Assembly: GCA_963764975.1 (NCBI GenBank)
Contig: CAVXUF010000002.1
Span: 1,114,331-1,178,330, forward strand
Length of the DNA stretch: 64,000 nucleotides
Direction of reading: 5' to 3'
From: an uncultured Chloroflexia bacterium
Lineage (GTDB): Bacteria; Chloroflexota; Limnocylindria; Limnocylindrales; CSP1-4
The number at the start of each line of letters is the position of its first letter. Within the stretch, counting starts at the first letter, position 1. Shown piece by piece: positions 1 through 45,119 of the stretch. The notes under the pieces were generated by a model. The model had not been told where the DNA came from. It ran no database searches and saw only the letters and a program-made list of their open reading frames with translations. Made by a program: the position numbers and the translations under genes.

Positions 1-1
1 G

Positions 2-922
2 ATCCGCGCCGGGATCACGTTCCACGAGTACGGCCGGCTCGTGATGTGGCCGTACGGCTACACGAAGAAGGACGTCCCGGCCGACATGACCTTGCAGGAT
101 CGCAACGCACTGGCCAGGATCGGGCGGGCCATGGCTGCCACGAACGGGTACCGCCCACAGCAGGCGAGCGACCTGTACATCACGTCCGGGACGCTTCGCG
201 ACTACGCGTACGGGGTCTATCGCATCTTCTCGTACACCTTCGAGCTCTCGAAGCGCGACTACCCCGACGACTCGAGGATCTCGCGCGAGACGCAGCGCAA
301 CCTTGAGGCGGTCTCGTACCTGCTGACGCACGCCTGGTGCCCGCTGTCGGTCCTCGGCGCGACCGTCCGGGACGCACGCTGCGGCGCGTTCGATGACGAC
401 CTCGAGGTCGCGCGCGGTTGGACGGTGGACCCCGATGGCACCGACACGGCGCCGGCGGACGCGCGCTTCAGCCGATCGAACCCGCAGTCGACGTCGTCGA
501 AGGGCCCGAAGCAGCTCGGGACGGTCACGTCCGGGCGCAAGGCGTTCGTGACGGGCGCGGAGGCGGGGTCGAAGGCGACGGTGCACGACCTCGACGGCAC
601 GACGACCGTGCGCTCACGGTCCATCACGTTGCCGGGGGACCTCGGGCAGCGGCTGACGTTCCGGTACAACGTCGCGCACAGCGCCGGAAGCTCGACGGCG
701 GACTACCTGCGGGCGATCGTCGAGGTCAGCGGGGTGCCGACCGTGGTCTTCGAGCGGCTCGGGAGCGCGGTGGACGTCGATGGGGTCTGGCGCAAGGCCA
801 CGATCTCCCTGGACGCGTTCGCCGGCGAGACGATCCGGATCCGGTTCGAGGCCGCTGACGGCGGCGCCCCGAACCTGCTCGAGGTGGAGATCGACGACGT
901 CCGGGTGACGCGCGGTTCGTAG
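2..922 (+). CDS. M14-family zinc carboxypeptidase, C-terminal part (5' end lies upstream of the window)
   Basis: The frame is open from base 2. ITFHEYGRLVMWPYGYT and SGTLRDYAYG..SYTFEL are typical M14 motifs. A beta-rich C-terminal domain follows. Confidence 0.8.
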   Translation: MRAGITFHEYGRLVMWPYGYTKKDVPADMTLQDRNALARIGRAMAATNGYRPQQASDLYITSGTLRDYAYGVYRIFSYTFELSKRDYPDDSRISRETQRNLEAVSYLLTHAWCPLSVLGATVRDARCGAFDDDLEVARGWTVDPDGTDTAPADARFSRSNPQSTSSKGPKQLGTVTSGRKAFVTGAEAGSKATVHDLDGTTTVRSRSITLPGDLGQRLTFRYNVAHSAGSSTADYLRAIVEVSGVPTVVFERLGSAVDVDGVWRKATISLDAFAGETIRIRFEAADGGAPNLLEVEIDDVRVTRGS

Positions 923-956
923 CCTGCCGCGCACTGCAGGAACCTGGCTCCGGGCT

Positions 957-1064
957 CCAATACCAGTGGAAACCTCCACACGAACGAGCGTGGGCGGTAG
1001 ACCATCTCGCACGCTGAGTGTCAGTCCACGAGGGACCTGTGAGGAACGTACCAATACCAGTGGA
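957..1064 (+). repeat. Two exact copies of the 14-mer CCAATACCAGTGGA (957-970 and 1051-1064) in the msrA upstream region
   Basis: Read directly. Each copy sits next to a complementary TCCAC pentamer (975-979 and 1024-1028). Confidence 0.6.
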
Positions 1065-1116
1065 GGCGGGCCGTCGTCGTTACGAATCCGTCATCAGTGC
1101 GGAGTAGATTCCCGGC

Positions 1117-1788
1117 ATGTGGTTCTTCGACTCCAAGCCTCAGACCGTCCCCTCCCCCGCCGATAGCCTCCCCGGTCGACCGGATCCCATCATGACCCCC
1201 GGCGTGCACACGATCCTCGGCACGCCCCTCGCCGGTCCGTGGCCGGATGGCACGAAGACCGCGATCTTCGGGCTCGGCTGCTTCTGGGGCCCCGAGAAGG
1301 AGTTCTGGCAGCTCCCCGGGGTGGTGACCACGGCCGTCGGATATGCCGGTGGCCACACGCCCAATCCCACGTATCGCGAAGCGTGCTCCGGTGACACCGG
1401 CCACGCCGAAGTCGTGTTCATCGCCTACGACCCGGCCCGGATCACGTACGAGCAGCTGCTCAAGGTGTTCTGGGAGGACCACGACCCCACCCAGGTCATG
1501 CGCCAGGGCAACGACGTCGGGACCCAGTACCGCTCGATCATCCTGGTCGCCGACGACGAGCAGCGAGCCGCCGCCGAGGCCTCAAAGGCGATGTACCAGG
1601 ACCGCCTGTCCGCCGCCGGCTACGGCCCGATCACGACCGAGATCGTCGACGCCGACCGATTCTTCTACGCCGAGGACTACCACCAGCAATATCTGGACAA
1701 GAACCCCGGCGGCTACTGCCCGATCCACGCCACCGGCGTGAAGCTGCCGGACGACTTCCTGGTCACGCCGCTTCAGTACGTGGACTAG
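1117..1788 (+). CDS. msrA: Peptide-methionine (S)-S-oxide reductase MsrA
   Basis: GLGCFWGPE active-site motif, GYAGG, GHAEVV and [17 protein letters not shown]-terminal motif. 223 aa. Confidence 0.95.
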
Positions 1789-1947
1789 GGCTGGCTACGG
1801 CTTTCTCCCACTCGACGCGGAGTCGCGCGACAAGCTCGGCAAGGAGGAACTTGGCCTCGGCCTTCGAGGTCCATCCGAAGTGAGCGGATGGGGCTCAGGG
1901 CCTACTACGAGGCCGACCTCCGGGTCGCCAACGCGCTTCGGGCGTGG

Positions 1948-2080
1948 TACGCAGCCGAGACGGGCGAAGACCAGCAGCAGTCTCGCTGAGAACCCAATTG
2001 GGTACCACTGCAACAACTCTACTGGCGTCTCATGCCCAATCGGGCTCGGAGTCGAGGCGCGGGCTAACCTCCGACGCTAG
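1948..2080 (+). pseudogene. Orphan msrA 3'-end fragment (divergent variant, one frameshift)
   Basis: WYAAETGEDQQQ then, after a frameshift, LAENPIGYHCNNSTGVSCPIGLGVEA..stop. This parallels [26 protein letters not shown] of the intact gene. Confidence 0.6.
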
Positions 2081-2553
2081 GGGTCTTGTGGCCCGCAGAT
2101 GCTGGCGAGTTCGCGAGCGCCCAAGACCCGCCGCACAGCCTTCTCTCCAGTGCGCTGTTTGATCAGTCCCTCCTTTGCATTGCCGGTCAACGCGGCAAGA
2201 CATCGTCCCTCAACCCGAGGCGCGATCCGGACCTCGACGACCGCCGGGTTCATGTTCATGAAGCCACCGCCGATCACGCCCGAAACCGTACGCTCCGATC
2301 CGCTTGGATCGCCATCGAGCAGCCGGCCCAGCCGAGCCATCGCGTCGGAGAACGCCATCGCCGCCTGGACAGGGTCCGCGCGGACTTCGACCACGGTCTC
2401 GAACTTCTGACTCTTGAGGTACCGCGCGGCGATCCCGCCGCCGCCGACGCCAAATTCGCCAGGGGTCAACTTGCCCAGCTCATCCTCGAGCACACGGTCG
2501 ACGGTCCCGACGGGAGCATGTCCTCCACGCAGCCGTTCCCAGAGGCGATGCAT
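2077..2553 (-). CDS. Hypothetical protein (158 aa from MHRLWERL)
   Basis: Longest ORF in the interval with GC3-rich codon usage. No family recognised. The ORF-track N-terminus (to 2736) overlaps the msrA fragment and is probably not translated. Confidence 0.5.
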   Translation of the reverse strand: MHRLWERLRGGHAPVGTVDRVLEDELGKLTPGEFGVGGGGIAARYLKSQKFETVVEVRADPVQAAMAFSDAMARLGRLLDGDPSGSERTVSGVIGGGFMNMNPAVVEVRIAPRVEGRCLAALTGNAKEGLIKQRTGEKAVRRVLGARELASICGPQDP

Positions 2554-2620
2554 AAAGCGGATTATCGTGCCCAAGGGCACGTCAGACAAGCGAGGAGGCA
2601 AGAGTCGTACAGGCGCCAGC

Positions 2621-2710
2621 GAACAACCCCTGCGGCTACTGCCTGATCCACGCCACCGGTGTGAAGCTGCCGGATGACTTCGCGGTAACCCGCTGCAGTA
2701 CGTGGACTGA
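2621..2710 (+). pseudogene. Orphan msrA 3'-end fragment (recent copy)
   Basis: About 88% nt identity to 1696-1788 with a 1-nt indel and its own TGA. Translates as [23 protein letters not shown]. Confidence 0.85.
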
Positions 2711-2906
2711 GCCCGGCATGGGCGTGGCGACCGCAAACCTCTGCGTCGCGCTCCTCTATGAGGGTGTCGACATATGGAGGCCGATCGAGGCGGAGCTTCT
2801 CGGACGCGGGAGATACCGCTTGGTAGCGACCCAGACTATGACCCCGGAGTGAGGTCCGGCTAGACCAGTCGCCCGAACTCCGTGGGTCGATGTGGGGATT
2901 CGGCAG

Positions 2907-3065
2907 TCAGCGGGGTCGCGCGAGCAGACGGGCGCTGGTCACGATCGACCAAGCGATCACAAGGGCTACGGTAACGATGGCGGCCGGTATGTTCTCATTG
3001 ACCACACCCACGGAACCGGTCAAGATCGATGCGGCGAGCAGCAGTCGATCTTCGAGGGGCCTCAT
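2907..3065 (-). CDS. Possible small membrane protein (52 aa, below the ORF-track cutoff)
   Basis: Hand translation gives MRPLEDRLLLAASILTGSVGVVNENIPAAIVTVALVIAWSIVTSARLLARPR. It has an ATG start and two hydrophobic stretches. Confidence 0.3.
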   Translation of the reverse strand: MRPLEDRLLLAASILTGSVGVVNENIPAAIVTVALVIAWSIVTSARLLARPR

Positions 3066-3180
3066 CTCGAGCCTCCTTGGCCAGGCAGTGCAGGAGCCAG
3101 AGACTGCTCCGCGTCACCATGACGCTGGCAGGACGACATTGTTACGCAGCGGCAATCGCTCGCCAGGCCTGCAACCGGGC

Positions 3181-3275
3181 CGCCAGCAGTAGTTGAACGT
3201 GTCTGAGAATCCCCGGGGCTACTGGCCCGACCACGAGACGGGGGTGGCGTGCCCCGTGGGCCAAGGGAGCACGCT
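3181..3275 (+). pseudogene. Orphan msrA 3'-end fragment (divergent variant, in-frame stop)
   Basis: RQQ(TAG)LNVSENPRGYWPDHETGVACPVGQGS. The TAG replaces the conserved Tyr of HQQYL. Confidence 0.55.
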
Positions 3276-3334
3276 GGCACCGACGGCACTTCCAAGCCGA
3301 GCGCTTCGAGGCGCGACGAAACGGATCGTGACGC

Positions 3335-3655
3335 TCAGAGCAGCCAGGCGACGACCGCGAGCATCACGATCGGGAACCAAAGGACGATCGTGTTCCCGAC
3401 GACCTGGGCGACGGTGCCGACCACGGGAACAGGTGCGAGCCAGGCCACGACGACGGCGGTACCGTCAACGAGCACCCTCACCACGAGTCCACCGAGGGGG
3501 TGGTCGTTCACGAGCAGGACGAACACCAGCCCGATGAGCGTCGCGGAGATCACGGCCTCGTGCGGCGTCGCCAGTTGAACCACGAGGCACACGGCGCCGG
3601 CGAACATCGCCATCGCGGGCATGAGGATCGCGAAGAATCCGAAATTGAACCCCAT
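3335..3655 (-). CDS. Hypothetical integral membrane protein (106 aa from MGFNFGFF)
   Basis: Three or four hydrophobic helices. ATG at 3655. Confidence 0.5.
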   Translation of the reverse strand: MGFNFGFFAILMPAMAMFAGAVCLVVQLATPHEAVISATLIGLVFVLLVNDHPLGGLVVRVLVDGTAVVVAWLAPVPVVGTVAQVVGNTIVLWFPIVMLAVVAWLL

Positions 3656-3824
3656 TTCGTCGCGGGTTTCCTCCAGCCCCGCGGCGCGCTTGCGTTCGCT
3701 CAATTCCAGACTCCGGAAGCTCTCCTCACATCGAAGAGACGCCTTCCTTCGGAAAGCGTTACCGCCCGCCCCGTCACAGGCCCGGTCGTCGGTGAAGAGG
3801 TTGAGCTGCCCGGATCCGCTCAGG

Positions 3825-4298
3825 TCAGAGATATCCCTCGGGAACCGGACCAAGGACCTCCATGTGATGACGACGGGCGATCTCGTCGAGCCGATCTGCG
3901 TCCGCCCGGCCGCTCGTGATCGCGGCGCTGAGTTGTTCGAAGTACCCGACCATCGCCGTCGGCGTGTATAGGTTCAGCTTCCGGCTGGGGGCGTCGCCGA
4001 CGCGAAAGCCGTGTCGGATCCCCGCCGGGATGAAGACGAACGAACCTGCCGGGCAGGCATACGCTCGTTCGTCGATGAAGATGCGGTACTCACCCGCGAG
4101 AACGTAGAACGCCTCGGCGGCGTCGTGGTGGATGTGCAACGGGGGCCCGAAGCCGGGCGGTTCGGTGGCCTCGAGCAGAGCGAACGCGCCCCCGGTCTCC
4201 TCGCCCGTCGCCTTGAGAGACATCTCGAAGTTGCCGAGGTCGATGGACCGTCCTTCGCCTGGCCCAAGCACGAACGCGGTGCCGAGATGATCTGCCAT
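3825..4298 (-). CDS. Cupin-domain protein (copy 1, intact)
   Basis: GGAFALLEATEPPGFGPPLHIHHDAAEAFYVLAGEY...GSFVFIPAGIRHGF matches the two-motif cupin signature. Confidence 0.85.
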   Translation of the reverse strand: MADHLGTAFVLGPGEGRSIDLGNFEMSLKATGEETGGAFALLEATEPPGFGPPLHIHHDAAEAFYVLAGEYRIFIDERAYACPAGSFVFIPAGIRHGFRVGDAPSRKLNLYTPTAMVGYFEQLSAAITSGRADADRLDEIARRHHMEVLGPVPEGYL

Positions 4299-4425
4299 CC
4301 TGAGACCCCTCGCGATTCGCGGCGCGGTCCGGCCGGGGTGGACCGCCCCTTCTGAGGGCAGTATCCGGATTGGCCCGACCCGCGTCGACCCGTGGCGGGC
4401 GCGATCGGCGGCGTATGCTCCGACC

Positions 4426-4722
4426 GTGAAACAGGCTCGACTGGCCCTGACACTCGGAATCGTCGGATTCCTGGTGTGGCCGCTGTCCTACGCGTGGATC
4501 CCGAATGCCGGCAACAACCCGGACTGGATCGGCGTGATCGTCCCGGTCGCCGAGTGGGGAGCGATCGCGTGTGCCATCGGCGCGATCTGGCTCGGGATGC
4601 GGTCCCGGCGCGCCGGGATCACGTCGCTCGACTCGGTTTGGGCTCCCCGCGTGGGCTGGTTGACCCTGGGGATGATGGCGATGGCGTTCGTGGTGGTCGC
4701 AGCCTCGTATCGCGAAGCCTGA
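4426..4722 (+). CDS. Hypothetical membrane protein (98 aa)
   Basis: Three predicted TM helices. GTG start. No family recognised. Confidence 0.45.
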   Translation: MKQARLALTLGIVGFLVWPLSYAWIPNAGNNPDWIGVIVPVAEWGAIACAIGAIWLGMRSRRAGITSLDSVWAPRVGWLTLGMMAMAFVVVAASYREA

Positions 4723-4803
4723 GGGCCCGGGTGTAGCCTCGCCAGACACGGTGCGACATCTTCAACGGAGGCCGAGCATGCCCCGCCCCTGCGACACGGC
4801 GTC

Positions 4804-5190
4804 ATGACGATCGAGCTGAACCACACGATCGTCTACTCGCGGGACAAGCGCGCTTCATCGGACTTTCTTGCGGGACTCTTCGGGCTGGCGGAACCGGTGG
4901 CGTGGGGTCCGTTCCTCGCCGTCGAAGTCTCGAATCACGTGACACTCGACTTCTACCACGCCGACGGCGAGATCGCGTCCCAGCACTATTGCTTCCTCGT
5001 GGGTGAAGACGACTTCGACCAGATCTTCGGTCGGATCCAGGCGCGGGGGCTCGACCACTGGGCCGACCCGGGCCATGACCAGCCGGGCGAGATCAACACG
5101 CACGACGGCGGACGCGGCGTCTACTTCGAAGACCCGAGCGGGCACAACCTCGAGATCATCACGAGGCCATACGGCGAGGATCGCGGCTAG
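4804..5190 (+). CDS. VOC-family (glyoxalase/bleomycin-resistance fold) protein
   Basis: 128 aa. LNHTIVYSRD...HYCFLV...GVYFEDPSGHNLEI is typical of the VOC fold. Confidence 0.8.
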   Translation: MTIELNHTIVYSRDKRASSDFLAGLFGLAEPVAWGPFLAVEVSNHVTLDFYHADGEIASQHYCFLVGEDDFDQIFGRIQARGLDHWADPGHDQPGEINTHDGGRGVYFEDPSGHNLEIITRPYGEDRG

Positions 5191-5295
5191 ATCGCAGCGC
5201 TGGCGAACGCCGATGGCGGGCAGAAGGCTGACGTGTCCGAGGTCCCGCACGGCTTCGTGGTCACGCCGCGGGACGCCGACTGACATTCCGCCCGC

Positions 5296-5540
5296 GGGTT
5301 CGCCGAGCATAAGGGCGACCTTCCCGGCGACGTCCCGGTTCTTCAGCCGATCCATCGCCTCGGCGATCGCTTTCCCAGGGCAGCTCGGCACCGAGCTGCG
5401 GATCGAGCTTGCCGTCGGCTACGAGCGAGGCGAGGTACCCAAGGTCGCGACCGAACGGATCGCCACCGAAGAACAACTCGAACCCCTGCAGACGGACAAG
5501 GGCTCGGGAACGTCCTGCATGGAGATCCTGCCGGGAGCCG
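5296..5540 (-). pseudogene. Remnant of a zinc-type (MDR) quinone oxidoreductase / alcohol dehydrogenase C-terminus, frameshifted
   Basis: LQGFELFFGG..LASLVADGKLDPQLGAELPW in one frame, then AIAEAMDRLKNRDVAGKVALML in another. The N-terminal two-thirds of the protein is absent. Confidence 0.5.
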
Positions 5541-5672
5541 AGCTGTCTGCCACCATTGCGCGCATCGGTCGGCCTTCCGGTCGAGTCTCCCTCGTCCAGA
5601 CGATCGCACTTCGCGGCGCTGTGGGCGAAACGCTGACCTGTCCGAGGACCGAGGACCCGGAGAAGGGGTGAG

Positions 5673-6272
5673 ATGACCGACCCGATCGCGGACATCATCG
5701 GTGACTACCGAGCGTTCGCGGCCCAACAGCGCGACCGGTTGCTGTGGCGTGGCATCGACATCGCCCCGTACGCGCTCAGCCACCTCGCGTACCGGGTGCC
5801 CGAGTGGGACCAGTACGTGCAGGTCCGGACGCTCCTCGAGCGTCACGCGAGCGCGAATCGGGAGAACGTCTGGAACGGCCGGCCGATCTCCCTGATCCTT
5901 CCCGAGGAGCCGCTCGAAGTCCTCGACGGCAAGGCGGTTCCGATGATCGAGCTCATCCCGCCCGTCCACCAGCGTGTCTACAAGATGGGGCTAGAGCACC
6001 TCGGCGTCGTCGTCGGCGACACGTTCGACGCCTTCGTCGAAGCCCACAAGCCCGTCCTGACAGGGCAGCAGTTCCAGGGCCCAAGCAGCACGCCCGATCC
6101 CGTCTACATCCTGTTCGAGGACTTCACCCACGTGAAGTTCTATCGACTGTCCCTGCAGGCATCCGTCGAACTCGTCGAGGGGCACGCCTTCAAGGATGGA
6201 TTCCACCACGTCGACGGCTGGGTGCCCCAGCGGCTGGTAACCGCGACGGGGCCCAACCCGCTGCCCCGATGA
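5673..6272 (+). CDS. YecM-like VOC-family metalloprotein
   Basis: SHLAYRV...NGRPISLI...MIELIPP...GLEHLGVVVG...VKFYRLSL parallels E. coli YecM (ADHISLRC..NGRPICLF..GWEHIEIVL). Confidence 0.65.
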   Translation: MTDPIADIIGDYRAFAAQQRDRLLWRGIDIAPYALSHLAYRVPEWDQYVQVRTLLERHASANRENVWNGRPISLILPEEPLEVLDGKAVPMIELIPPVHQRVYKMGLEHLGVVVGDTFDAFVEAHKPVLTGQQFQGPSSTPDPVYILFEDFTHVKFYRLSLQASVELVEGHAFKDGFHHVDGWVPQRLVTATGPNPLPR

Positions 6273-6632
6273 CGTCGACCGAGCGGTCATCTGATACCAG
6301 GGAACGCCCCGGCTGTTCTCCATCACGCCCGGAACGTCATCGCGACGCTCGACATCAGATCGTGAGCCACGCCTCGATGGCGCTCGGCCTGTCAGCGATC
6401 AACGACGGGCCCGGACCCCGCCGGTCGAGCTCGTTAGCGAGTTGCGTGCGATCGCCGAGTCGGCCACGTTCGACAGGCCCTGACCGTCGCCAACCTAAGA
6501 GTGACGCGCGGGCGGCCCGGGTGGACGACGCTGAGCGAAGGACTCGGTTGACTTGGTTTCCGGGTCATGCGTTCACAGGCACAACCGCGATCGGCTGCGT
6601 CGTCCGCTGAGCCCACAGGCTGCAGGCCCTCG

Positions 6633-6800
6633 CAGCGGGGGCCCGATTCCCGCCGGCTCGGCGGCTTCGAGCAGGGCGCAGGCGCCCCCGGTTGGCGCGC
6701 CATCAGCCTTCGGGGACATCTCGAAGTTGCCAGGATCAGTCGCCCGTCCCTGGCCGGGCTGAAGGACGAAAGCTCCGCCTGGGCGAACTGACAAGGCCAT
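6633..6800 (-). pseudogene. Cupin fragment (copy 3, N-terminal 55 aa only)
   Basis: AFVLQPGQGRATDPGNFEMSPKADGAPTGGACALLEAAEPAGIGPPL aligns with copies 1 and 2. Homology stops before the HIHHD metal motif. Confidence 0.7.
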
Positions 6801-6891
6801 CGCCTCCTTGCATGTCCCCGACCGCTTTGCATCGCACGGGAGCGTGCGCCGATGCCTCGGGACCGGCAGCGCTTGAAATGCTGGGGGCAAA

Positions 6892-7596
6892 TTATGGCCA
6901 GCGGGGGTTTGGCGTGACCCCGGCGAGGTAAGCCCCGACGCTGACCAGCCCGAGGATGATTGCCACGCCGACGAATCGATAGAGCCTCCGACTTCCCCGA
7001 GGCTTGATCAGGGCGAAGACGCCGGGGAGGACGATGATCGCGCAGACGAGCACGAACGTGCAGATCGTCGTCCACGTGGTCCCCAGGAAGGTAGTCCATG
7101 TCGTGATCGACCAGACGAGCCAGACGCCGGCGATCCAGGCGATGATCAGGACGCCGATCCAGCCGACGTTCCGACTTCCCAGCCACTCATCGAACGGAAC
7201 CCCCGAGATCTCGGGATACATCGACCGGTAGGCGAGGAATGGTGGCCCGATGAACATGACGAGAAAGAGCAGAAAGCCGATGTTCGTCCTGCCGACTTCG
7301 CGTTGCGCCGGCTCGCCGATCACGACGCCGAACGCGAGCATGGCGATCAGGAACCACCCTGCAACCACCATGGGGAACAGCAGCGTCGAATTGAACCCTT
7401 CGAGTCGGCCACGGGTGGCTCTGCCGACGACCGTGGGCGTCGCCCGAAACAGCCCGAGTCCGGCCGCCGGGGATCGAACCCACAGGACCGCCCACCCGAT
7501 GATCAGGACCGGGAGCATCGGGATCGATGCGACGATCCCCAGCGCCACCGAGACCGCCGTGACCCAATCGAGGATGCGGGCGCCTGAGGACATCAT
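6892..7596 (-). CDS. Hypothetical polytopic membrane protein (234 aa)
   Basis: Six or seven hydrophobic helices. Its start overlaps the stop of the upstream SRPBCC gene (ATGATGA). Confidence 0.55.
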   Translation of the reverse strand: MMSSGARILDWVTAVSVALGIVASIPMLPVLIIGWAVLWVRSPAAGLGLFRATPTVVGRATRGRLEGFNSTLLFPMVVAGWFLIAMLAFGVVIGEPAQREVGRTNIGFLLFLVMFIGPPFLAYRSMYPEISGVPFDEWLGSRNVGWIGVLIIAWIAGVWLVWSITTWTTFLGTTWTTICTFVLVCAIIVLPGVFALIKPRGSRRLYRFVGVAIILGLVSVGAYLAGVTPNPRWP

Positions 7597-8045
7597 CAGG
7601 GCGACGCGTCGCGGTTCGCGCCGGCTTCGAGGGCTGCCTTGAGCAATGCGGCCCGCTTCCTGAGGTCGCGCCGCATGATTCCGTCCGACAGGGCCACCAG
7701 GAAGCGTCCGGGCATCGAGGTCGGTCGAACGGTGTCCACGAATGCGACCCGGGTCCCAGATTCGGTGGCGACGAGCACTGCGGTCTCATCCATCTCGTAA
7801 CCCATCCCGCGAACGGCGACGCGTATGTGCCTTGGGCGCTCGAGCTCCGTGACTCCCCAGGTCGAACGGGCGGCCATGCCGCCCCGGCGATGAACGAATG
7901 TTCCCGCGAGCCCCACGCGCATCGGTCCGTCGGGCGTGTAGGTCACGAGGGCGCGGTCGATGACCGGGAAGCTGGCCGTGTCGGCGAGGAAGTCGAAGAC
8001 GACCTCTGGCGATCGTTTGATGTTGATCTCGAATCGGATCTCCAC
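7596..8045 (-). CDS. SRPBCC-superfamily (polyketide cyclase/dehydrase-like) protein
   Basis: 149 aa. IKRSPEVVFDFLAD..FP N-terminus and length are typical of SRPBCC proteins. Confidence 0.75.
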   Translation of the reverse strand: MEIRFEINIKRSPEVVFDFLADTASFPVIDRALVTYTPDGPMRVGLAGTFVHRRGGMAARSTWGVTELERPRHIRVAVRGMGYEMDETAVLVATESGTRVAFVDTVRPTSMPGRFLVALSDGIMRRDLRKRAALLKAALEAGANRDASP

Positions 8046-8119
8046 GTCACTCCCATCGTCGATGGCGACGAGTCCAGATCACGACATGGTGCGCCGACCG
8101 AGGGTGACTCACAACCTGC

Positions 8120-8690
8120 CCCGACGGACGCCCAGATGCGGGCGATCGACCCGTCGAAAATCGCCGCCGTCCCAATTCCCGCTCGCCGGTGGGATCTACC
8201 AGTGGTCCGACTCGTCTACTCGTTCGCACGGGACGGCATGGTCGCCGGGTCCAGGCTCCGCTCGAGCGTGCATCCGCGTCTGCACATGCCGCCCGGAGCG
8301 GTGCCCGTGGCGACGGTCGTGCCTGCTGTGATCACACTGCTCCCGTCGGCCACGGTCGCGATCATCATCACGTTCGCGGTCGTGGGCATCTATATCGGGT
8401 TCCAGAGCGTCGTCTTCGCCGCCCTGATCGCCCGAGCCCGTGGTTGGCGCCCGACCGGATCGTTCAGGCTTGGTCGTTGGGGTCGACCGGTCAACGTCAT
8501 CGGCCTTGTCCACAGCATCTCGGCGATCATCATCCTGTCGGTCAAGACCGGCGAAGGCCAGGAAGACAGGTGGCTCGTGCCGATCAGCGCCGGGATCGTC
8601 TCCCTGCTGGGGCTCGCGTACCTGTTGATCGTCCGACCCACCGAGAATGTCCGCGAGGATGCCCGCGCCGACGCGATCGACATGGGCTAG
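8120..8690 (+). pseudogene. APC-family amino-acid permease remnant (internal deletion plus frameshifts)
   Basis: KIAAVPIP / LAGGIYQW (early-TM motif) is joined directly, in another frame, to RLVYSFARDGMV and the last about 150 aa of a permease. Confidence 0.7.
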
Positions 8691-8776
8691 CCGAGGCCTG
8701 CCGGACGCGCCTCCGGTCGGTCCGCCGGCCGGAGGCCACCCTTCTTCCTGATCGGCCCACGTGACTCGGTCGCACC

Positions 8777-9248
8777 TTAGAGGTAGCCCTCGGAAACCGG
8801 GCCGGTGATCTCCATGCCATGGTCTCGGGCGATCGCGTCGAGTCTTTGCGGATCGGCGTCGACCATCGCTGATCGCCGCGCTCAGCGCATCGAAGTAGCC
8901 GACCATCGCCGCCGGCGTGTAGAGGTTGAGCTTCCTGCTCGGGGCCGCGCCCACCCGAAACCCGTGTCGGATCCCGGACGGGATGAAGATGAACGATCCC
9001 GCCGGGCACGCGTACTCCTGCGCCTCGATGAAGATGCGGTATTCGCCTTCGAGGACGTAGAACGCCTCCGCGGCGTCGTGATGGATGTGCATCGGTGGCC
9101 CGAAGTCCGGTGGCTCGGTGGCCTCGAGCAGCGAGAAGGCGCCGCCGGTCTCTTGGTTCGTGGCCTTCAGGGACATCGTGAATGCGCCCAGGTCGATGGC
9201 GCGTCCCTCACCGGGGCGCAGGACCATCGCACCGATGTCGTCCGTCAT
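8777..9248 (-). pseudogene. Cupin-domain protein (copy 2, frameshifted near the C-terminus as sequenced)
   Basis: About 80% nt identity to 3825-4298. The frame breaks after AAISDG, and VDADPQRLDAIARDHGMEITGPVSEGYL continues in the next frame. Length is 472 nt. Confidence 0.8.
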
Positions 9249-9961
9249 ACGGAAGCCTCCATCTCCGACGTGGTCGACGTCGCTGCCGCCCGTCGAACCA
9301 GCACCAGCCCGAGCAACAGGCACCAGAGCAAGGTGCCCGGGATCGCGCCGATCGACATGACCCAGAGCGCGTCGGGGAGCGCGTCGGCTGCACCGAGCGG
9401 CCCAAGGATCAGGGCGATGATGCGGAACGCGGGGATCACGCCAAGCGCCGCAAGTGCGACGGGGATGGCCCGGGTCCGACCACCGACCAGGCTCACCCCG
9501 ACGGCCCACAGGCACAGCGCGAAGATCCCGCCCTGGGCGAACCCGTGGATCCCCACCATCTGAACGGCGGTGTAGGCCGCTTCGCCCCAGGCGGTATCGA
9601 GACTGTCGATGTAGAGGAGCAATTCGACGCTTGACCGCATCACGCCGTGGAGGAAGGACCCGACGGCCGACAGCAGGCCGAACGCCGTGACCGATCGAAC
9701 GACCAGCGGGCTCGAACGGCGAGCCAGCACGTCCGCCACGGCGAGCGTCCCGATGATCAGGGTCACGGCCATCACGAGGAGCGCGATCCCGGCCTGCGCC
9801 CAGATGATCGAGTGCTCGCGCAGGAACCGCAGGCTGACCGCCGGGCTGTCGGTGTCCTCGAAGCCGAGCCTTGGCGGCGCCAGCTCGAGCGCGAACCAGA
9901 TCATGCCCGCCACGGCGAAGACGATGATCGATACAGCCCCGATCACGTTGGTGGTTCGCAC
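9245..9961 (-). CDS. Polytopic membrane protein (possibly DUF4386-like), translationally coupled to cupin copy 2
   Basis: 238 aa with six or seven TM helices. Its stop overlaps the cupin ATG (ATGA). Confidence 0.6.
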   Translation of the reverse strand: MRTTNVIGAVSIIVFAVAGMIWFALELAPPRLGFEDTDSPAVSLRFLREHSIIWAQAGIALLVMAVTLIIGTLAVADVLARRSSPLVVRSVTAFGLLSAVGSFLHGVMRSSVELLLYIDSLDTAWGEAAYTAVQMVGIHGFAQGGIFALCLWAVGVSLVGGRTRAIPVALAALGVIPAFRIIALILGPLGAADALPDALWVMSIGAIPGTLLWCLLLGLVLVRRAAATSTTSEMEASV

Positions 9962-10299
9962 GTAGAGCCTCCAGCGACCTCGGCCGACGCGCGCATGGAA
10001 GGCTCGAGTCGGATCGTGGCTGCGATGAGTATCACGGAGCAGATGTCACGAGGAGTGCCGCCACGGCACGCTCGATCGCCGGTGTACGCTGCGTCTCGAT
10101 CAACACCGACGCAGCAGAGTGACGACCCGATGCCGAGCGATCGCACGCCGCGACGACGCCAACGCGCCGACGGATCCGGGAGTTTCCTGGGGAACCTCGG
10201 GATCGTGGAGACGGGGACGGGGATGCAGCACGGTCCATCCGCGATCCTGCTCGCCGTCGTCGGCGCGCTGGTCATCTACCCCTTCACGCGTTTCGTCCG

Positions 10300-11065
10300 G
10301 TGGCTCACGCGCCGGTGATCCCGGCGCGAACCTCGCCTTCGCCCTGGGTCATCGGGTCGGCGCTGCTATCCCTCGCGCTGCTCTCGATGCCCGCCCTGTT
10401 CGTGCTGGCGTTCCCGGACCAGGCGAGCGGGACGCGCGACCAGCTCGGCGTCGACTACCAGCTGTACATGGACGTCGCGCGGCGGTGGCTCGCGGGCGGC
10501 TCGTACTTCGAGCCGTACCAGCTCGCCGGTCCGTACGAGATCCGCGCGGGCGATGTCCTGTACCCGCCGGTCGCCCTGCTGTTCTTCGCCCCCTTCACCG
10601 TGCTGCCGGCGCTGGTCTACTGGGCCGTGCCGATCGCCGTGCTCGCGTGGAGTCGTGTGGCATTGGCGGCCACGCCCGGAGGTCTGGCCGCTCATCGCGT
10701 TCTGTGCCGCGTGGCCGACGACCGCCCTCAAGACGTGGACCGGCAATCCCGTCCTGTGGATCGCGGCGGCCTTGGCCATCGCCACCCTGTGGCGCGGCGC
10801 GGCGGTGCTCGTGTTGTTGAAGCCGAGCCTGTTGCCGTTCGCGCTGTTCGGGATCCGACAGCGCTCGTGGTGGGTTGCGCTGGTGGTGCTGGTCGTGGTG
10901 TCGATCCCGTTCGGTTCGCTCTGGGTGGACTGGCTGACCGCGCTCTCGAACTCGCGTGGCGGCGGGTGGCTGTACTCCGCGCTCGAGATCCCGTTCCTCG
11001 CCCTGCCGCTCGTCGCCTGGGCCGGGCGGACTCGGGGTCGCCCGGGGGCCGCGCAGGGCACATGA
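10300..11065 (+). pseudogene. DUF2029 / GT87-like membrane glycosyltransferase-family protein (one frameshift near 10670)
   Basis: DYQLYMDVARRWLAGGSYFEPY..VLYPPVALLFFAPF resembles DUF2029. The reading continues in the +1 frame (WPLIAFCAAWPTTALKTW...). Confidence 0.6.
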
Positions 11066-12104: not shown

Positions 12105-13420
12105 CCGCCACGGACCCGGCCGCCCGCGACCCCGACGCCGCCGCTTCGCTCGCGGCCGCCCGCGCGCTGGACGCCGCCCGCGCGCTCGACGCCGCCGATC
12201 CCCTGACGCGCTATCGGGACCAATTCCTGCTCCCCGACGGCCCGGAAGGACCCGACGGCCCTCCGGCCGTCTATCTCGCCGGGCAGTCGCTCGGGCTCCA
12301 ATCGATCGGCGTCCGCGACGCCATCGGTGCCCAACTTGACGCGTGGGCCCACCTCGGGATCGAGGGTATGTTCACCGCTCCGCACGACTGGTTCACGCTC
12401 GACGACACGCTGCGTGCCGGCATGGGCCGGATCGTGGGGGCACGACCGGATGAGATCGCGATCCTCAACACGCTCACAGTGAACATCCAGCTGCTCCTCG
12501 CCTCGTTCTTCCGCCCGTCTGGCGCCCGTCGCCGGATCCTCGTCGACGGCCCGCTCTTCCCGTCCGATCGACACGCCCTCACGAGCCACCTCGCATGGCA
12601 CGGCCTCGATCCCGCCATGGACCTGGTCACCATCGACCCTCGAGCGGGCGAGGACTGCGTCCGGATCGATGATCTCGAGGTGGCGATCCGGGACCACGGC
12701 CCCACGCTCGCGCTCGTCTTCCTCGCGGGCGTCAACTTCGCCACGGGCCAGGTCCTGCCGATCGGCCGGCTCACCGCCGCGGCCCACGACGTCGGCGCCG
12801 TCGCCGGGTGGGATCTTGCGCACTCGGCCGGGAACGTCCCACTGGCCCTCCACGACGACGGCGTCGATTTCGCCGCCTGGTGCACGTACAAGTACCTCAA
12901 CAGCGGACCGGGCGGACCGGGCGCGATCTTCGTCCACGAGCGCCAGAGCGCGCGCGACGACGTTCCTCGACTCACCGGCTGGTGGGGCGCGCGTCCCGAC
13001 CACCGCTTCGACCCCGACGGCCCGTTCGTCTCGGCTCCGGGCGCGTCGGCCTGGAAGGCTTCGACCAACCCCGTCCTCTCCCTGACGCCCCTCGCGGTCT
13101 CGCTCGCGATCTTCGACGAGGTCGGGATGCCGGCCCTTCGCGAGCGTTCGATCCGCCTCACCGGCGACCTGGCGGGGCGCCTCGCCAGCCTCGGTGTCGA
13201 GGTGCTCACACCGCCGGAGCCCGACCAGCGCGGCTGTCAACTGTCGATGCGCTTTGCGAACGCGCCGGCCGTCCTCGACGCCCTTGCAGCACGCGGGATC
13301 GTCGCCGACTACCGGAGCCCGGACATCATCCGGGTGGCCCCGATCCCGCTCTACAACACGTTCGGAGACAACCAGCGCCTTGAGGCCGCCCTGGCCGAAG
13401 TGATGACCGCTCGCGGCTAG
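12101..13420 (+). CDS. kynU: Kynureninase
   Basis: YLAGQSLGLQ, DFAAWCTYKYLNSGPGGPGAIFVHE (PLP-lysine region) and RVAPIPLYNTF. 439 aa. ATGA overlap with eda. Confidence 0.9.
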   Translation: MTATDPAARDPDAAASLAAARALDAARALDAADPLTRYRDQFLLPDGPEGPDGPPAVYLAGQSLGLQSIGVRDAIGAQLDAWAHLGIEGMFTAPHDWFTLDDTLRAGMGRIVGARPDEIAILNTLTVNIQLLLASFFRPSGARRRILVDGPLFPSDRHALTSHLAWHGLDPAMDLVTIDPRAGEDCVRIDDLEVAIRDHGPTLALVFLAGVNFATGQVLPIGRLTAAAHDVGAVAGWDLAHSAGNVPLALHDDGVDFAAWCTYKYLNSGPGGPGAIFVHERQSARDDVPRLTGWWGARPDHRFDPDGPFVSAPGASAWKASTNPVLSLTPLAVSLAIFDEVGMPALRERSIRLTGDLAGRLASLGVEVLTPPEPDQRGCQLSMRFANAPAVLDALAARGIVADYRSPDIIRVAPIPLYNTFGDNQRLEAALAEVMTARG

Positions 13421-13502
13421 CCGCCACAGGCGCTTGACGCCACCCGTCCCGGAAGTGGGGCATCCTTAGGTTCGCCAGCCATGCACCGGAGACGATCGAA
13501 GC

Positions 13503-16328
13503 TTGCAGACCGCGCATCCCGACCGCCCACGCCGCCGCCAACCACCGCCATCCAACGGAGGCGCGTCGTCCGGTGGCTACATCGGGGTCATCCTCGTCCT
13601 GTTCTTCGCCGGCGTCGGGGCTATCGCGTCGATCGCGCTCGTGGGCGCCTACACGTCGCTCGCGAGCGACCTGCCCCCCACGAGCGAGCTGACCAAGTTC
13701 GTCCTCTCCGAGGAATCGATCATCTACGACCGCACCGGCGAGACCGAACTCGCGCGGTTCGGGGACGCCAAGCGCGAGGTCGTGACGTTCGAGGAGATCC
13801 CGCCGATCATCCTTGATGCCACGACGGCGATCGAAGACAAGACCTTCTGGGAGAACGCCGGCTTCGATCCGGTGGCGATCGTGGCGGCGGCGCTCGATTC
13901 CCTGCGCGGCAACAGCCGCGGTGCGTCCACGATCACCCAGCAACTGGTGCGGGCGCGGCTGCTCGACCCGGAGTTGGTCCAGGACCCGTCACGGACCGCG
14001 GAACGGAAGCTCAAGGAAATCATCCAGTCCATCCGCGTGACCCAGGCGTACCCGGGCGACCCCGGCAAGCGCGAGATCATCACCGCCTACCTCAACCAGA
14101 ACTACTACGGCAACCAGAGCTACGGCGTGAAGTCGGCCTACGAGGGCTACTTCGGCAAGCCGTTCCTCGCGGAGAACATCACCCCGGCCGAGGCCGCGAT
14201 CATCGCCGGGCTGCCCAAGTCACCGTCGAACTACGACCTGGTTCGCAACGCCATCGAGGAGTGCGATGTCGTGCTGGACGAGGGCCAGGTCTGCCCGAAC
14301 CCCGTCCTGGTCGTCCCCGAGGACACGACCGTGGTCCAGCGCCGAAACGACATCCTGGACCTGATGGCCGAGGGCGGCCGGACGCCGATCTCCGAGGATC
14401 TGTACTCCCCATCCGACTTCGAAGCCGCGAAGCTCGACGAGGTGTTGCTGGCCGGCCAGACCGCGACGCGATGGCTGGCGCCCCACTTCGTGTGGGCGGT
14501 GCGCGACGAGCTGACGGAGAAACTGTGCGGCCCCGACGCCGAGTCGTGCGACGCGCTCGAACGCGGGGGTCTGCGGATCACCACGACGGTCGATCTGCGG
14601 CTCCAGGCCATCGCCGAACGGTGGGTGGAAGCCGCCGCCATCGTGCCGCACCGCAAGAACCCGGTCGCGGCAGCCCGGGCGCTCGGGTTCGAGGAGTACC
14701 CCGCGTGGCTGGCGAACCTCGAGAACAAGAACCTCCGAAACGGGGCGCTCGTGGCGCTCGACTACCAGACCGGCGAGCTGGTGGCGTACGTCGGCTCCGC
14801 GAAGTACTACGCGACGAATAGCAGCAAGCGGTTCCAGCCGCAATACGACGTCGTCGGCCAGGGCTTCCGCCAGCCTGGATCGGCGTTCAAGCCGTTCAAC
14901 TACGCCATCGGCATCGAAGACCAGAAACTGACCGCCGGCACGATGCTCATGGACGCGGCGACGGACTTCAGCGGCTACACGCCCAACAACGCGGACAACC
15001 TCGAGCGCGGGCCGGTCCGTGTGCGCAGCGCGCTCCAGTTCTCGCTCAACATCCCCTCGGTCAAGGCGGCCGCGATCAACGGCGTCGATCACATCTTCGA
15101 TCGGGCCAAGGACTTCGGGATGACGTTCCAGAGCGAGCGCTCCGACGCGGGCCTCGCGCTCGCGCTCGGCGTCCAGGAGGACGCGACCCGTGGACCTCGT
15201 CACGGCCTATGGGACCCTGGCCAACGGCGGGCAGCGGGTCGACCACACGACGATCCTCACCGTGCAGGACCGGAACGGCAACGATGTCGTGCCGCCGCAC
15301 AAGGTGGTCCCGGTGCCGGTGGTCAGCCCGCAGACGGCGTTCATCGTCACGGACATCCTGGCGGGCAACACGAACTCGCAACATCAACCCGTTCTGGGGC
15401 CGGTTCGCCATCCAGGGCCCCGACGGCCGCCGGTCGGCCACGCTCAAGACCGGGACCAACAACGACGCGAAGGACCTCAACGCCTACGGGTATATCGCCC
15501 CACCGACCGAGGACGGCCGGGCCGACGGGGCGTATGCGCTGGCGGTGGGCGTTTGGAACGGCAACAGCGACAACAGCCCGGTCTCCACCGCCGCGCGACC
15601 GGTCTTCTCGATCGACGTCTCCACCTACGTGTGGCAGGGGTTCCTCCAGGAGGCGAGCCAGGACTGGCCGCTGACCCGGTTCGAGCGTCCCGCCGACGGG
15701 CTCACGCGCGTCCGGATCGACCCGTTCACCGGGATGCGCGCGGCCGACGGGGCCGAATCGGTCAACGAGTGGTTCATCCCGGGCACCGAGCCCCGCGATC
15801 AGCTGGCGGCCGACGCCTGCGGCGAGGACGTGCTGACCGCATTCAGTGCCCCGCGCGCCTACGAGAACCAGTTCTCGGCGTGGATGGCCGCGGACCGGGA
15901 CTGGTTGCGCCGCGCCGGCCGTGGTACCGGGCGTCGCCGGCGGCCCGGACCGGACGCGCACGTCGTACTTCTACAACGGCGGGTTCCGGCCGTACGGGTC
16001 GTCCTGGGGGGCGCTCGTGACCGAAGGATGCGGAGAGCCGAGCCCGTCACCGTCGTGCATCCCGCTCCCGACGCCGGACGCGAGTGGCGTCATCCCGTCG
16101 CTCGTGATCCCCTCGCCAAGCGGCTCGGAGGTGGTGGCCTTGCCGTGCGAGCCGCCGTCCCCATCCCCATCGGCGTCCGAGTCCGAGACACCGCCACCCA
16201 CCGACACGCCACCCCCGACGCCGACGCCGACGCCCACACCGACCCCGACACCCACACCGACGCCGACGCCCACCCCGACCCCGACACCCACGCCCACGCC
16301 CACACCGACACCGACACCCACGCCCTGA
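13503..16328 (+). pseudogene. Class A penicillin-binding protein (transglycosylase/transpeptidase), three +1 frameshifts as sequenced, with a (Thr-Pro)n tail
   Basis: GT51 motifs EDKTFWENAGFD and RGASTITQQL. Transpeptidase motifs SAFKP and KTGTNND. Frames switch near 15185, 15390 and 15935. Confidence 0.85.
16218..16325 (+). repeat. About 18 consecutive Thr-Pro codon pairs (ACN CCN) forming the C-terminal tail of the PBP
   Basis: Read directly. In frame with the last PBP segment; stop at 16326-16328. Confidence 0.9.
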
Positions 16329-44534: not shown

Positions 44535-45119
44535 GTGATCCTGGCGTTGCTGCGGCTGGCCACGCTTGGCGCCGTCGGCGCATGGTTCGCGGATGAGGTG
44601 CTGCGCGCCCGTGGCGCGGGTGGACCGCCGCCCCCGGTCCGGACCCGGATCGTGATCGACGCGCCGATCGAGCGGGTCTGGGCCGTGCTCGCCGACATCG
44701 AGGGCCAGCCGCGCTGGATGCACGACATGAAGCGGGTGTCGATGTCGACGCCGGGGCCGACGCGCGTCGGGAGCCGCGGCGAAGCCACGGTTCGGATGTA
44801 TGGCCTGAGCACGACGGACCCCGTTACGGTCACCGCGTTCGAGCCGCCAACGAGATTCGCGGTCGCCCACGAGGGCCGCTTCTCGGGCAGCGGGACCTTC
44901 GAGCTGGAGCCCGGCGCCGACGGGACGACGACGATCGTGCGCTGGGAGGAGACGCTGATCGCCCCGGAACTCGCACACCTCGTGGCCCTCGCCGCTGCGC
45001 CCGTGTTCCATCGGATCTTCCAGCGAGACCTCGAGCGGCTCCGCGACCTGGTCGAGGCCGGCGAAGGCGTCGATGGTGGCGAGCCCAGTCGCGCGGGCGC
45101 GGCCGTCCGGACCGGCTGA
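44535..45119 (+). CDS. SRPBCC-family protein with an N-terminal hydrophobic segment
   Basis: IDAPIERVWAVLADIEGQPRWM. GTG start just after the pncA stop. Confidence 0.65.
   Translation: MILALLRLATLGAVGAWFADEVLRARGAGGPPPPVRTRIVIDAPIERVWAVLADIEGQPRWMHDMKRVSMSTPGPTRVGSRGEATVRMYGLSTTDPVTVTAFEPPTRFAVAHEGRFSGSGTFELEPGADGTTTIVRWEETLIAPELAHLVALAAAPVFHRIFQRDLERLRDLVEAGEGVDGGEPSRAGAAVRTG

Follow-up and report, generated by a model that had tools for sequence, protein, structure and literature searches.

In a 64,000-nucleotide stretch of DNA from an uncultured Chloroflexia bacterium (hereafter the window, whose coordinates are those given without a prefix), an intact msrA gene (1117-1788, + strand; 223 amino acids (aa); Pfam PMSR, 3.4e-63) is followed on the same strand by five partial copies of its own 3' end, the orphan ends A to E, with unrelated genes between them, and the array extends up to yecM. 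We consider it probable that this stack was built by repeated site-specific insertion at a core within msrA, each event supplying the gene with a new end. An initial annotation, made from the sequence without database searches, had recognized three orphan ends and proposed serial insertion at the 3' end by elements that bring a replacement end with them. The three are real, although the stack is longer, with D and E to be added up to yecM, and the proposal is supported by an empty site in relatives, by the variable content of this place, by the left arms of the orphans and by units that shift position between genomes.

The window MsrA is identical (100%) to P0001, a protein called on a public 2.14 Mb contig; its nearest named relatives come from Chloroflexota / 'Candidatus Limnocylindria' metagenome-assembled genomes, and its C-terminus is of the type conserved across the Limnocylindria-like lineage. 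The current gene end is its final ~75-90 nucleotides (nt). The Pfam PMSR model stops at NPxGYC and hence cannot score C-terminal ends, and a tblastn search with the window MsrA scored two of the copies weakly (E = 0.06 for copy C and 2.5 for copy A; copy B reached 9e-8); therefore, a tail profile hidden Markov model (HMM) was made from the last 45-50 residues of 76 diverse MsrA proteins and compared with 34,250 six-frame peptides (1.39 Mb) from the window and 83 related loci. Outside msrA, significant matches in the window were found in three places only, all on the + strand, namely copy A (1982-2056, E = 6e-5), copy B (2619-2690, E = 5e-5) and copy C (3205-3270, E = 3e-5), so that every end claimed initially is recovered on the msrA strand, with E-values of 3e-5 to 6e-5, including the two divergent ones, A and C. 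Sites D and E surfaced when the window was compared with other stacks. The three reported orphans and the degraded D and E are genuine msrA 3' ends on the msrA strand, arranged in the order msrA core (~1711), A (2000), B (2634), C (3217), D, E, yecM, with a span of 1699-5672.

Orphan end A (1948-2080, +) consists of a left arm (1948-1999; CAGCAGCAGTCT, 2 nt short of msrA) and an SCPIG-type end (2000-2077) with a TAG stop. It reads ...DQQQ and, after a 2-nt deficit at the Tyr codon, which is the frameshift noted initially, LAENPIGYHCNNSTGVSCPIGLGVEA; its end is homologous to L167rc 9921-9980 (related loci are given here by L numbers). Orphan end B (2604-2710, +) has a left arm at ~2604-2633 and a KLPDDF-type end (2634-2710) with a 1-nt deletion and a TGA stop; its segment 2622-2710 agrees with 1699-1788 in 78 of 90 columns (87-88%), just as the initial estimate had it (about 88%, one 1-nt indel, a stop of its own). 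Orphan end C (3182-3275, +) joins a left arm of the class designated '+6' below (3182-3216; CAGCAGTAGTTGAACGTGTCTGAGAA) to an ACPVG-type end that starts at 3217; it reads RQQ-TAG-LNVSENPRGYWPDHETGVACPVGQGS, with TAG at 3190-3192, and was matched by an nhmmer site profile with E = 1.4e-9. Both A and C are about 60-70% identical to the msrA end; they have 12 of 25 residues in common, and the codons differ in nine of these 12, in agreement with the nine or more synonymous differences counted before. Orphan end D (5218-5283, +) comprises a '+6'-class left arm and an end with an internal deletion of ~45 nt; it reads 'QKADVSEVPHG/FVVTPRDAD' up to its TGA stop, aligns with L166 orphan 2 and gave an nhmmer E-value of 0.014 for 5217-5255. 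Orphan E (5623-5662, +), in which a '+6'-class left arm leads into the initial codons of an 'NRGPGA'-type end, matches L167rc 7829-7859 at 90% and is broken off 10 nt ahead of the yecM ATG, the remaining end and the spacer being deleted.

When all sites (19 aligned orphans and 12 intact genes) are aligned on their G-Y codons, the repeats fall into a common register: every orphan is msrA-like from approximately the QQY codons onward and not earlier, which is the shared starting point that had also been seen initially. Between QQY and N-P, at least 10 of the 19 aligned orphans, as well as D, E and the second L014 orphan, carry a left arm 6 nt longer than the corresponding part of msrA ('+6'; consensus approximately GGCAGTAGGCTGACCTGTCTGAGAA), and none of the 12 intact genes does; a second arm class, the 2-nt-short arm of orphan A, is common to this orphan and L055 orphan 3. 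In at least five independent orphans the '+6' arm has TAG at the Tyr codon. The stop reported initially at this codon of copy C is thus present, but it is a shared feature derived from the element and not a product of local decay. Such shared arm defects must travel with the units and never enter msrA, and local decay cannot explain them.

The same '+6' arm is joined to three kinds of ends (KLPDDF-type, ACPxG-type and RGPGA-type), which places the exchange to the right of the arm. The ends themselves form classes with one or two cysteines (GYCP...KLPDDF versus GYCP...CPxG). Orphan arms diverge from msrA left of GAGAA, the ends vary to the right of it, and the limits of homology between units and empty sites extend from 6 nt before to 15 nt after the first G of the G-Y codons. 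Because the arm/end mosaics and the breakpoints of shared units agree, the exchange point can be predicted, from these sequence comparisons, to lie within ~1705-1726, in the N-P-x-G-Y-C-P codons. The putative attachment and exchange region of msrA would then be 1699-1726 (+; codons K-N-P-G-G-Y-C-P-I), with the most conserved part, GGCTACTGCCCG, beginning at 1711. A loose regular expression for the left arm gave noise, and the nhmmer site profile was used in its place.

Immediately behind the msrA core, some relatives have nothing inserted, and even genomes with near-identical flanks differ from one another there. In L003 and L002 (88% DNA identity), yecM follows 70 bp past msrA, which represents the empty site, and window positions 1787-5670 (3.9 kb) are wholly absent from L003. 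In L001, positions 8885-10753 are 99.4% identical to window 1-1869, after which the two diverge, with the match resuming from 3320; here L001 has 425 bp of other sequence, closing with a truncated 'ANNPRGYCP' remnant, against 1,451 bp in the window (1870-3319), and all differences between L001 and the window are thus confined to the stack. The msrA-yecM interval of L165 is 2.5 kb long and contains other small genes. The synteny comparison proposed in the initial annotation therefore finds an empty site (L003/L002) as well as closer and more distant relatives that vary at exactly this place. In L167, the arm of orphan E recurs with a full end behind it, and next comes a spacer that can be aligned with the msrA-yecM spacer of L003; the L003 end-spacer-yecM block matches this L167 orphan from anchor +5; a native spacer behind the yecM-adjacent orphan fits an original end displaced by the first insertion.

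Similar stacks are present at ~11 of ~20 related Limnocylindria-like Chloroflexota loci. Apart from the window, they are found in L001 and, with tail-profile orphans located downstream on the same strand, in L011, L012, L014, L055 (3 orphans), L085 (3-4), L165, L166 (3), L167 (4) and L181, the last nine all having MsrA of the Limnocylindria/Chloroflexia type; at least 26 orphans are involved. Orphans were also detected at four loci from other lineages, L019, L110 (2-3), L140 and L178. Among loci that contain msrA, 22 of the 23 significant orphans lie downstream on the msrA strand, and the spacing from site to site is mostly 0.3-1.1 kb (range ~0.1-3.5 kb). The pattern recurs in independent assemblies from ENA, NCBI and JGI.

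The genes in the units delimited by these sites are small and ordinary; a unit has one to a few of them, on either strand. The first unit of the window holds a fragment of a DUF5655-type gene (1790-1869, +) directly past the msrA stop, a longer version of which is found in L001 (gene 10761-10928, with a weak DUF5655 match). The second unit (end A, ORF158 and the left arm of B; 2011-2649, +) is 87.7% identical to L167rc 9938-10575, the homology beginning 11 nt and ceasing 15 nt past the respective G-Y anchors. Its cargo, the open reading frame (ORF) ORF158 (2080-2553, -; 158 aa), encodes a conserved protein of unknown function that has 52 homologues, typically ~135-160 aa long (P0121 is 100% and P0122 87% identical), and no match in Pfam or PADLOC; the initial statement that the intervals hold only small minus-strand ORFs does not apply to this conserved gene. 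The ORF158 unit is second in the window and in L167 lies past yecM and an adenosine-deaminase unit, and a MarR unit takes first place in the L165 stack and second place in that of L014; both units retain both of their boundaries at these differing stack positions. The third unit contains a small hydrophobic ORF (2907-3065, -; 52 aa) taken from the ORF list, without a family match and of uncertain coding status. The cargo of the fourth unit (3335-5190) consists of four genes on both strands, namely those for a membrane protein (3335-3853, -), a cupin (3825-4298, -; Pfam Cupin_2, 7.5e-13), a small membrane protein (4426-4722, +) and a glyoxalase-family protein (4804-5190, +; Pfam Glyoxalase, 2.1e-6), and a part of it (4453-4574) is found again in the L165 stack. 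The remnant of a zinc-type alcohol dehydrogenase unit (5245-5650, -), which has an internal deletion, is 85.5% identical to L166 11459-11719 and 12366-12517, two segments that bracket the alcohol dehydrogenase gene between L166 orphans 2 and 3.

Across the stacks, the cargo families include RibD_C, glyoxalase, YecM, EamA, RidA, dienelactone hydrolase, MarR, SnoaL and zinc alcohol dehydrogenase, to which L110 adds an AbiEii toxin and a Phd/PIN pair; among ten unknown cargo proteins, PADLOC identified no defence family. The JGI contig L168 (1-11524), a dense series of small ORFs of 60-235 aa that mostly lack family matches, bears two ORF158 paralogues (~1105-1524 and 6243-6650) and no msrA ends, and thus the ORF158 family occurs in another type of small-gene cluster as well. 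The glyoxalase genes of L005 (11457-11899) and L085 (10569-11011) are 89% identical; the L085 gene sits between two orphans, the L005 copy is located 0.8 kb downstream of msrA, and no orphan ends were detected in L005, which suggests that units can become fixed after erosion of their sites.

In other lineages, elements with recombinase genes occupy the same target. In L019 (Herbidospora cretacea), an 8.8 kb element with a pSAM2-type RepSA and a 507-aa large serine recombinase abutting the orphan is inserted between msrA and an orphan end; in L178, a phage-like element of 9.4 kb, which encodes capsid, portal and terminase proteins, has a 528-aa serine recombinase adjoining the orphan. In both cases, the intact msrA and the orphan end bracket the integrase-bearing element. 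In the decayed stack of L110, a truncated end is fused with a piece of the L019 recombinase (80% over 30 residues). Finally, on the 124 kb viral contig L179, a 3' fragment of msrA is located immediately beside a tyrosine integrase and a repressor, a layout as would be expected of a phage attP site. These four loci, which supply the recombinases next to msrA ends that the initial annotation had suggested looking for, validate the view that, in other lineages, elements attach at the msrA end and bring its replacement with them. Exact searches for the left arm in viral contigs returned a single type of match, an unrelated phage gene, and tblastn searches of phage and plasmid collections with the consensus end returned mostly entire msrA genes.

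From these observations, we propose a tentative model of how the stack formed. The final ~90 nt of msrA would act as the attachment site for site-specific recombination, and the incoming unit would be a small circle bearing a left arm, then the shared core (the N-P-x-G-Y-C-P codons) and an entire msrA end as replacement. Upon recombination with msrA within the core, the gene would read into the end provided by the unit and remain functional, and the old end, now located behind the left arm of the unit, would be shifted downstream. Repetition of this step would yield the order msrA, A, B, C, D, E, yecM, and later deletions would have shortened several ends and part of the cargo. The exchanges in the window stack were presumably made by a recombinase, and, given that none is found in or near any Limnocylindria-like stack, the enzyme would be supplied by another part of the genome or by a transient element; the cases of L019, L110 and L178 suggest, by analogy, that it may be a large serine recombinase. 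Units may be moving in the present day as well.

Several observations weigh against this model. No recombinase gene or fragment was detected in the window stack (Pfam searches of interval ORFs on both strands), tblastn searches with two serine and two tyrosine integrases found none in the whole 64 kb, as the initial annotation had anticipated in stating that no integrase is left, and there is none within 10 kb of any Limnocylindria-like stack, the search for recombinases having covered ~60 ORFs by Pfam along with the precomputed Pfam assignments of ten loci. Genes for RepSA, transfer and integrase are likewise absent from the window stack, and no free circular unit or attP-like copy was found in the Limnocylindria-like lineage. 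The only tblastn match of the integrases, 37 residues within a luciferase-like gene of L167, is spurious. The exchange point is resolved to ~20 nt only. A hairpin or inverted repeat formed by the QQY codons (GCAGTA) and the complementary YC codons (TACTGC) was considered and rejected; inverted repeats around the exchange point measure 5-8 bp, and those of intact genes are at least as strong as those of orphans. L001 departs from the window at 1869, a position within the first unit and not at a site, indicating that rearrangements of other kinds act here too, and L167 has further sites beyond yecM, so that the order of events is no simple one-way stack.

A serious rival to repeated capture of small units is decay in place, whereby complete prophages or integrative conjugative elements inserted serially and then lost their integrase and most other genes, the units being fixed debris that differs in position through deletions and rearrangements within inherited stacks. 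The visible truncation of D, E, the alcohol dehydrogenase remnant and the DUF5655 fragment speaks for such a history, as does the off-site divergence between the window and L001, and the recombinase fragment fused to a truncated end in L110 is exactly what this decay would leave. The initial annotation, too, had considered the elements heavily decayed, which holds for the several truncated ones but does not make the stack mere debris, given that ORF158 is conserved and whole units recur elsewhere. However, recombinase fragments number zero among at least 26 orphans in 11 stacks, many units are one intact conserved gene neatly placed between two sites, both boundaries of the ORF158 and MarR units are preserved at differing positions, and entire units distinguish two genomes with 99% flank identity; on this evidence, we regard decay in place as rather unlikely. 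We therefore favour mobilization in trans, in the manner of cis-mobilizable elements or of the units of staphylococcal cassette chromosomes (SCC) that lack ccr genes, because the units are small and intact, show no integrase remnant, shift in position and differ between near-identical genomes.

The lack of a recombinase near any stack, together with repeats of 70-90 nt that are 80-90% identical in some pairs, could also be accommodated by general homologous recombination, in which circles or imported DNA with an msrA end enter by a RecA-dependent crossover of the Campbell type with the conserved end of msrA and units are lost by crossover via direct repeats, with no dedicated recombinase. Yet adjacent ends often belong to different classes with ~60-70% identity (A and C compared with msrA), which makes them a poor substrate for RecA; furthermore, one left arm occurs on three classes of ends, all orphans share a single register, and dedicated serine and tyrosine recombinases use the same target elsewhere, so that this explanation appears quite improbable. 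Still less probable is a store of silent ends that would be swapped into msrA to vary the tail with the resolving cysteine, as in silent-cassette systems. The ends do come in classes with one or two cysteines, all oriented as msrA, but most orphans are frameshifted, truncated or located behind a stop codon, unrelated genes separate the ends, the content varies among close relatives, and some relatives have an empty site; all repeats are direct, and neither intact alternative segments nor a recombinase, as would be expected of a silent-cassette or shufflon system, were found. Local tandem duplication of the msrA end, which the initial annotation itself had raised as a counter-explanation, or an assembly artefact would account for the 87-88% identity of B to the msrA end. 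However, the flanks of the copies and the contents of the units are unrelated, the end classes differ and the pattern is seen in independent assemblies, which excludes a simple tandem duplication and leaves this the least probable of the explanations considered.

A further possibility, which we put forward as speculation and do not expect to hold in full, is that the stacks are a working gene-cassette platform, in which a recombinase encoded in another part of the genome would take up mini-circles, each with a single gene, a left arm and an entire msrA end as replacement, and reshuffle them at the msrA end. With similar reserve, such a platform would resemble an integron that uses the end of a protein-coding gene as its attachment site and possibly a serine recombinase. 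If so, each capture could also switch the cysteine-bearing tail of MsrA.

Some of the loci examined show additional peculiarities of msrA or of its ends. The intact msrA of L014 (10001-10729; 242 aa) has a 19-residue in-frame insertion that duplicates the FY[YF]AED motif and looks like the scar of an insertion with a replacement fragment starting further upstream, comparable to L179. In L166, an orphan start ('MSKAPNGYCPPATT...'; 10689-10730) is located 17 nt past the msrA stop, representing either a near-empty unit or a deletion product. The msrA genes of L055 (10001-10714) and L167 (reverse strand, 14357-14243 and upstream) read through frameshifts, which are either indel errors of long-read assembly or the mark of a pseudogene; the apparent frameshifts in some orphans of these two contigs may likewise be assembly indel errors. 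In L140, a 638-aa TIR-TPR protein is encoded directly past the orphan msrA end (12166-14079); TIR-TPR proteins are often linked to anti-phage defence.

The far boundary of the window stack is yecM (5673-6272, +; Pfam YecM, 2.1e-15; 92.8% identical to L003 3913-4510), and the genes upstream of msrA differ among loci (M14 peptidase, sigma factor, guanylate cyclase, CBS). The G+C content does not mark the stack, being 0.62-0.68 inside and 0.65-0.73 in the flanks. Past yecM, the window contains a second block of ~3.8 kb (6269-10072), with membrane-protein-like ORFs (e.g., 6892-7596, -), which is absent from L003 (95 bp there); no msrA end or left arm was detected in it, and it seems to be a separate variable region. 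ARAGORN predicts a 95-nt tRNA-Thr(CGT) at 44575-44669, which is probably a false call; Rfam at gathering thresholds found no tRNA or other RNA family in the whole window.

The 3' coding end of msrA, with the conserved YHQQYL...NPxGYC motif, joins the short list of protein-coding integration hot spots, and it has become, by convergence, the target of two unrelated recombinase families in several phyla. The mobile elements of Limnocylindria-like Chloroflexota are little known, and the msrA site provides a variable region common to this lineage; because even genomes with 99% flank identity differ there, recent gene flow can usefully be traced by it. The serine integrases of L019 and L178, which are specific for msrA, are candidate tools as well, and many bacteria share their conserved target. 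If units devoid of an integrase are indeed still moved in trans, the stacks would be a cassette system comparable to integrons, in which both the 60-nt target and its partner site are defined.

The closest published anatomy is that of the ssrA islands of Dehalococcoides, tandem islands located downstream of a single-copy gene and delimited by direct repeats of its 3' end, each repeat being immediately preceded by a conserved motif that the target gene lacks; an integration module of six genes, with the serine recombinase DsiB, is present in 16 of 31 islands, and approximately half, without an integrase, were read as cis-mobilizable elements joined by accretion (McMurdie et al. 2011, PMC3146451, where SCC elements are also mentioned). 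The phylum (Chloroflexota), the tandem 3'-end repeats and the non-target motif are the same as here. In contrast, the target of the ssrA islands is a tmRNA gene with a 20 bp repeat, whereas in msrA it is a protein-coding end of ~75-90 nt that encodes a working C-terminus; the ssrA islands span kilobases to tens of kilobases and part of them bear an integrase, whereas the msrA units often consist of a single small gene, with a recombinase at none of at least 26 orphan sites.

In staphylococci, SCC elements are inserted by the large serine recombinases CcrAB at the 3' end of rlmH (orfX), which stays intact, and form arrays with several direct repeats, including composite elements and ccr-less pseudo-SCC, in which units lacking a recombinase can be moved in trans. 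Both systems use the conserved 3' end of a coding gene and form arrays; the gene, the host and the unit size differ, and the SCC repeat is ~15-18 bp with no long coding mimic, and no recombinase was found in the Limnocylindria-like stacks. ICESt1, ICESt3 and the related cis-mobilizable elements (CIME) at the 3' end of fda in Streptococcus thermophilus (Pavlovic et al. 2004, cited in PMC3146451; reviewed in PMC5704250) are another case. ICESt1 and CIME work at fda as the msrA stack does, but with a tyrosine integrase, as large conjugative elements of Firmicutes with two or three units per array. The Herbidospora element of L019 is an actinomycete integrative and conjugative element (AICE), with RepSA, the msrA 3' end as its target and a replacement end, whereas the window stack has no RepSA. 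Classical AICEs use tyrosine integrases and tRNA genes. A review of AICEs of the pSAM2 type names neither serine recombinases nor msrA (PMC2440964).

Integron arrays resemble the msrA stacks in being rows of short units, mostly of one small gene, with a repeated site between them, and the cargo has an integron-like flavour (the glyoxalase/bleomycin-resistance family, RibD_C proteins similar to dihydrofolate reductase, toxin-antitoxin pairs). Unlike in integrons, there is no intI by the first site and no recombinase among the upstream genes, the site is the end of a coding gene and not an attC hairpin, and the cargo lies on either strand; no GTTRRRY core is visible by eye in the aligned sites. 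The initial annotation had not known msrA as an integration target. For the 3' coding end this stands, as no report was found in the literature searched, but the neighbourhood has been described: the phage phiM247 targets the 5' end of msrA in Lactobacillus crispatus (PMC10763512), and the attL of phiNIH1.1 is located 16 nt past the msrAB stop, its tblastn match being the flanking msrAB gene. Thus, targeting of a 3' end with tandem accretion is a known process, applied here to a target not previously described, and the features that set the msrA stacks apart from these systems are the mimicry of a coding end over 75-90 nt in several classes, the very small units and the recombinase-free stacks.

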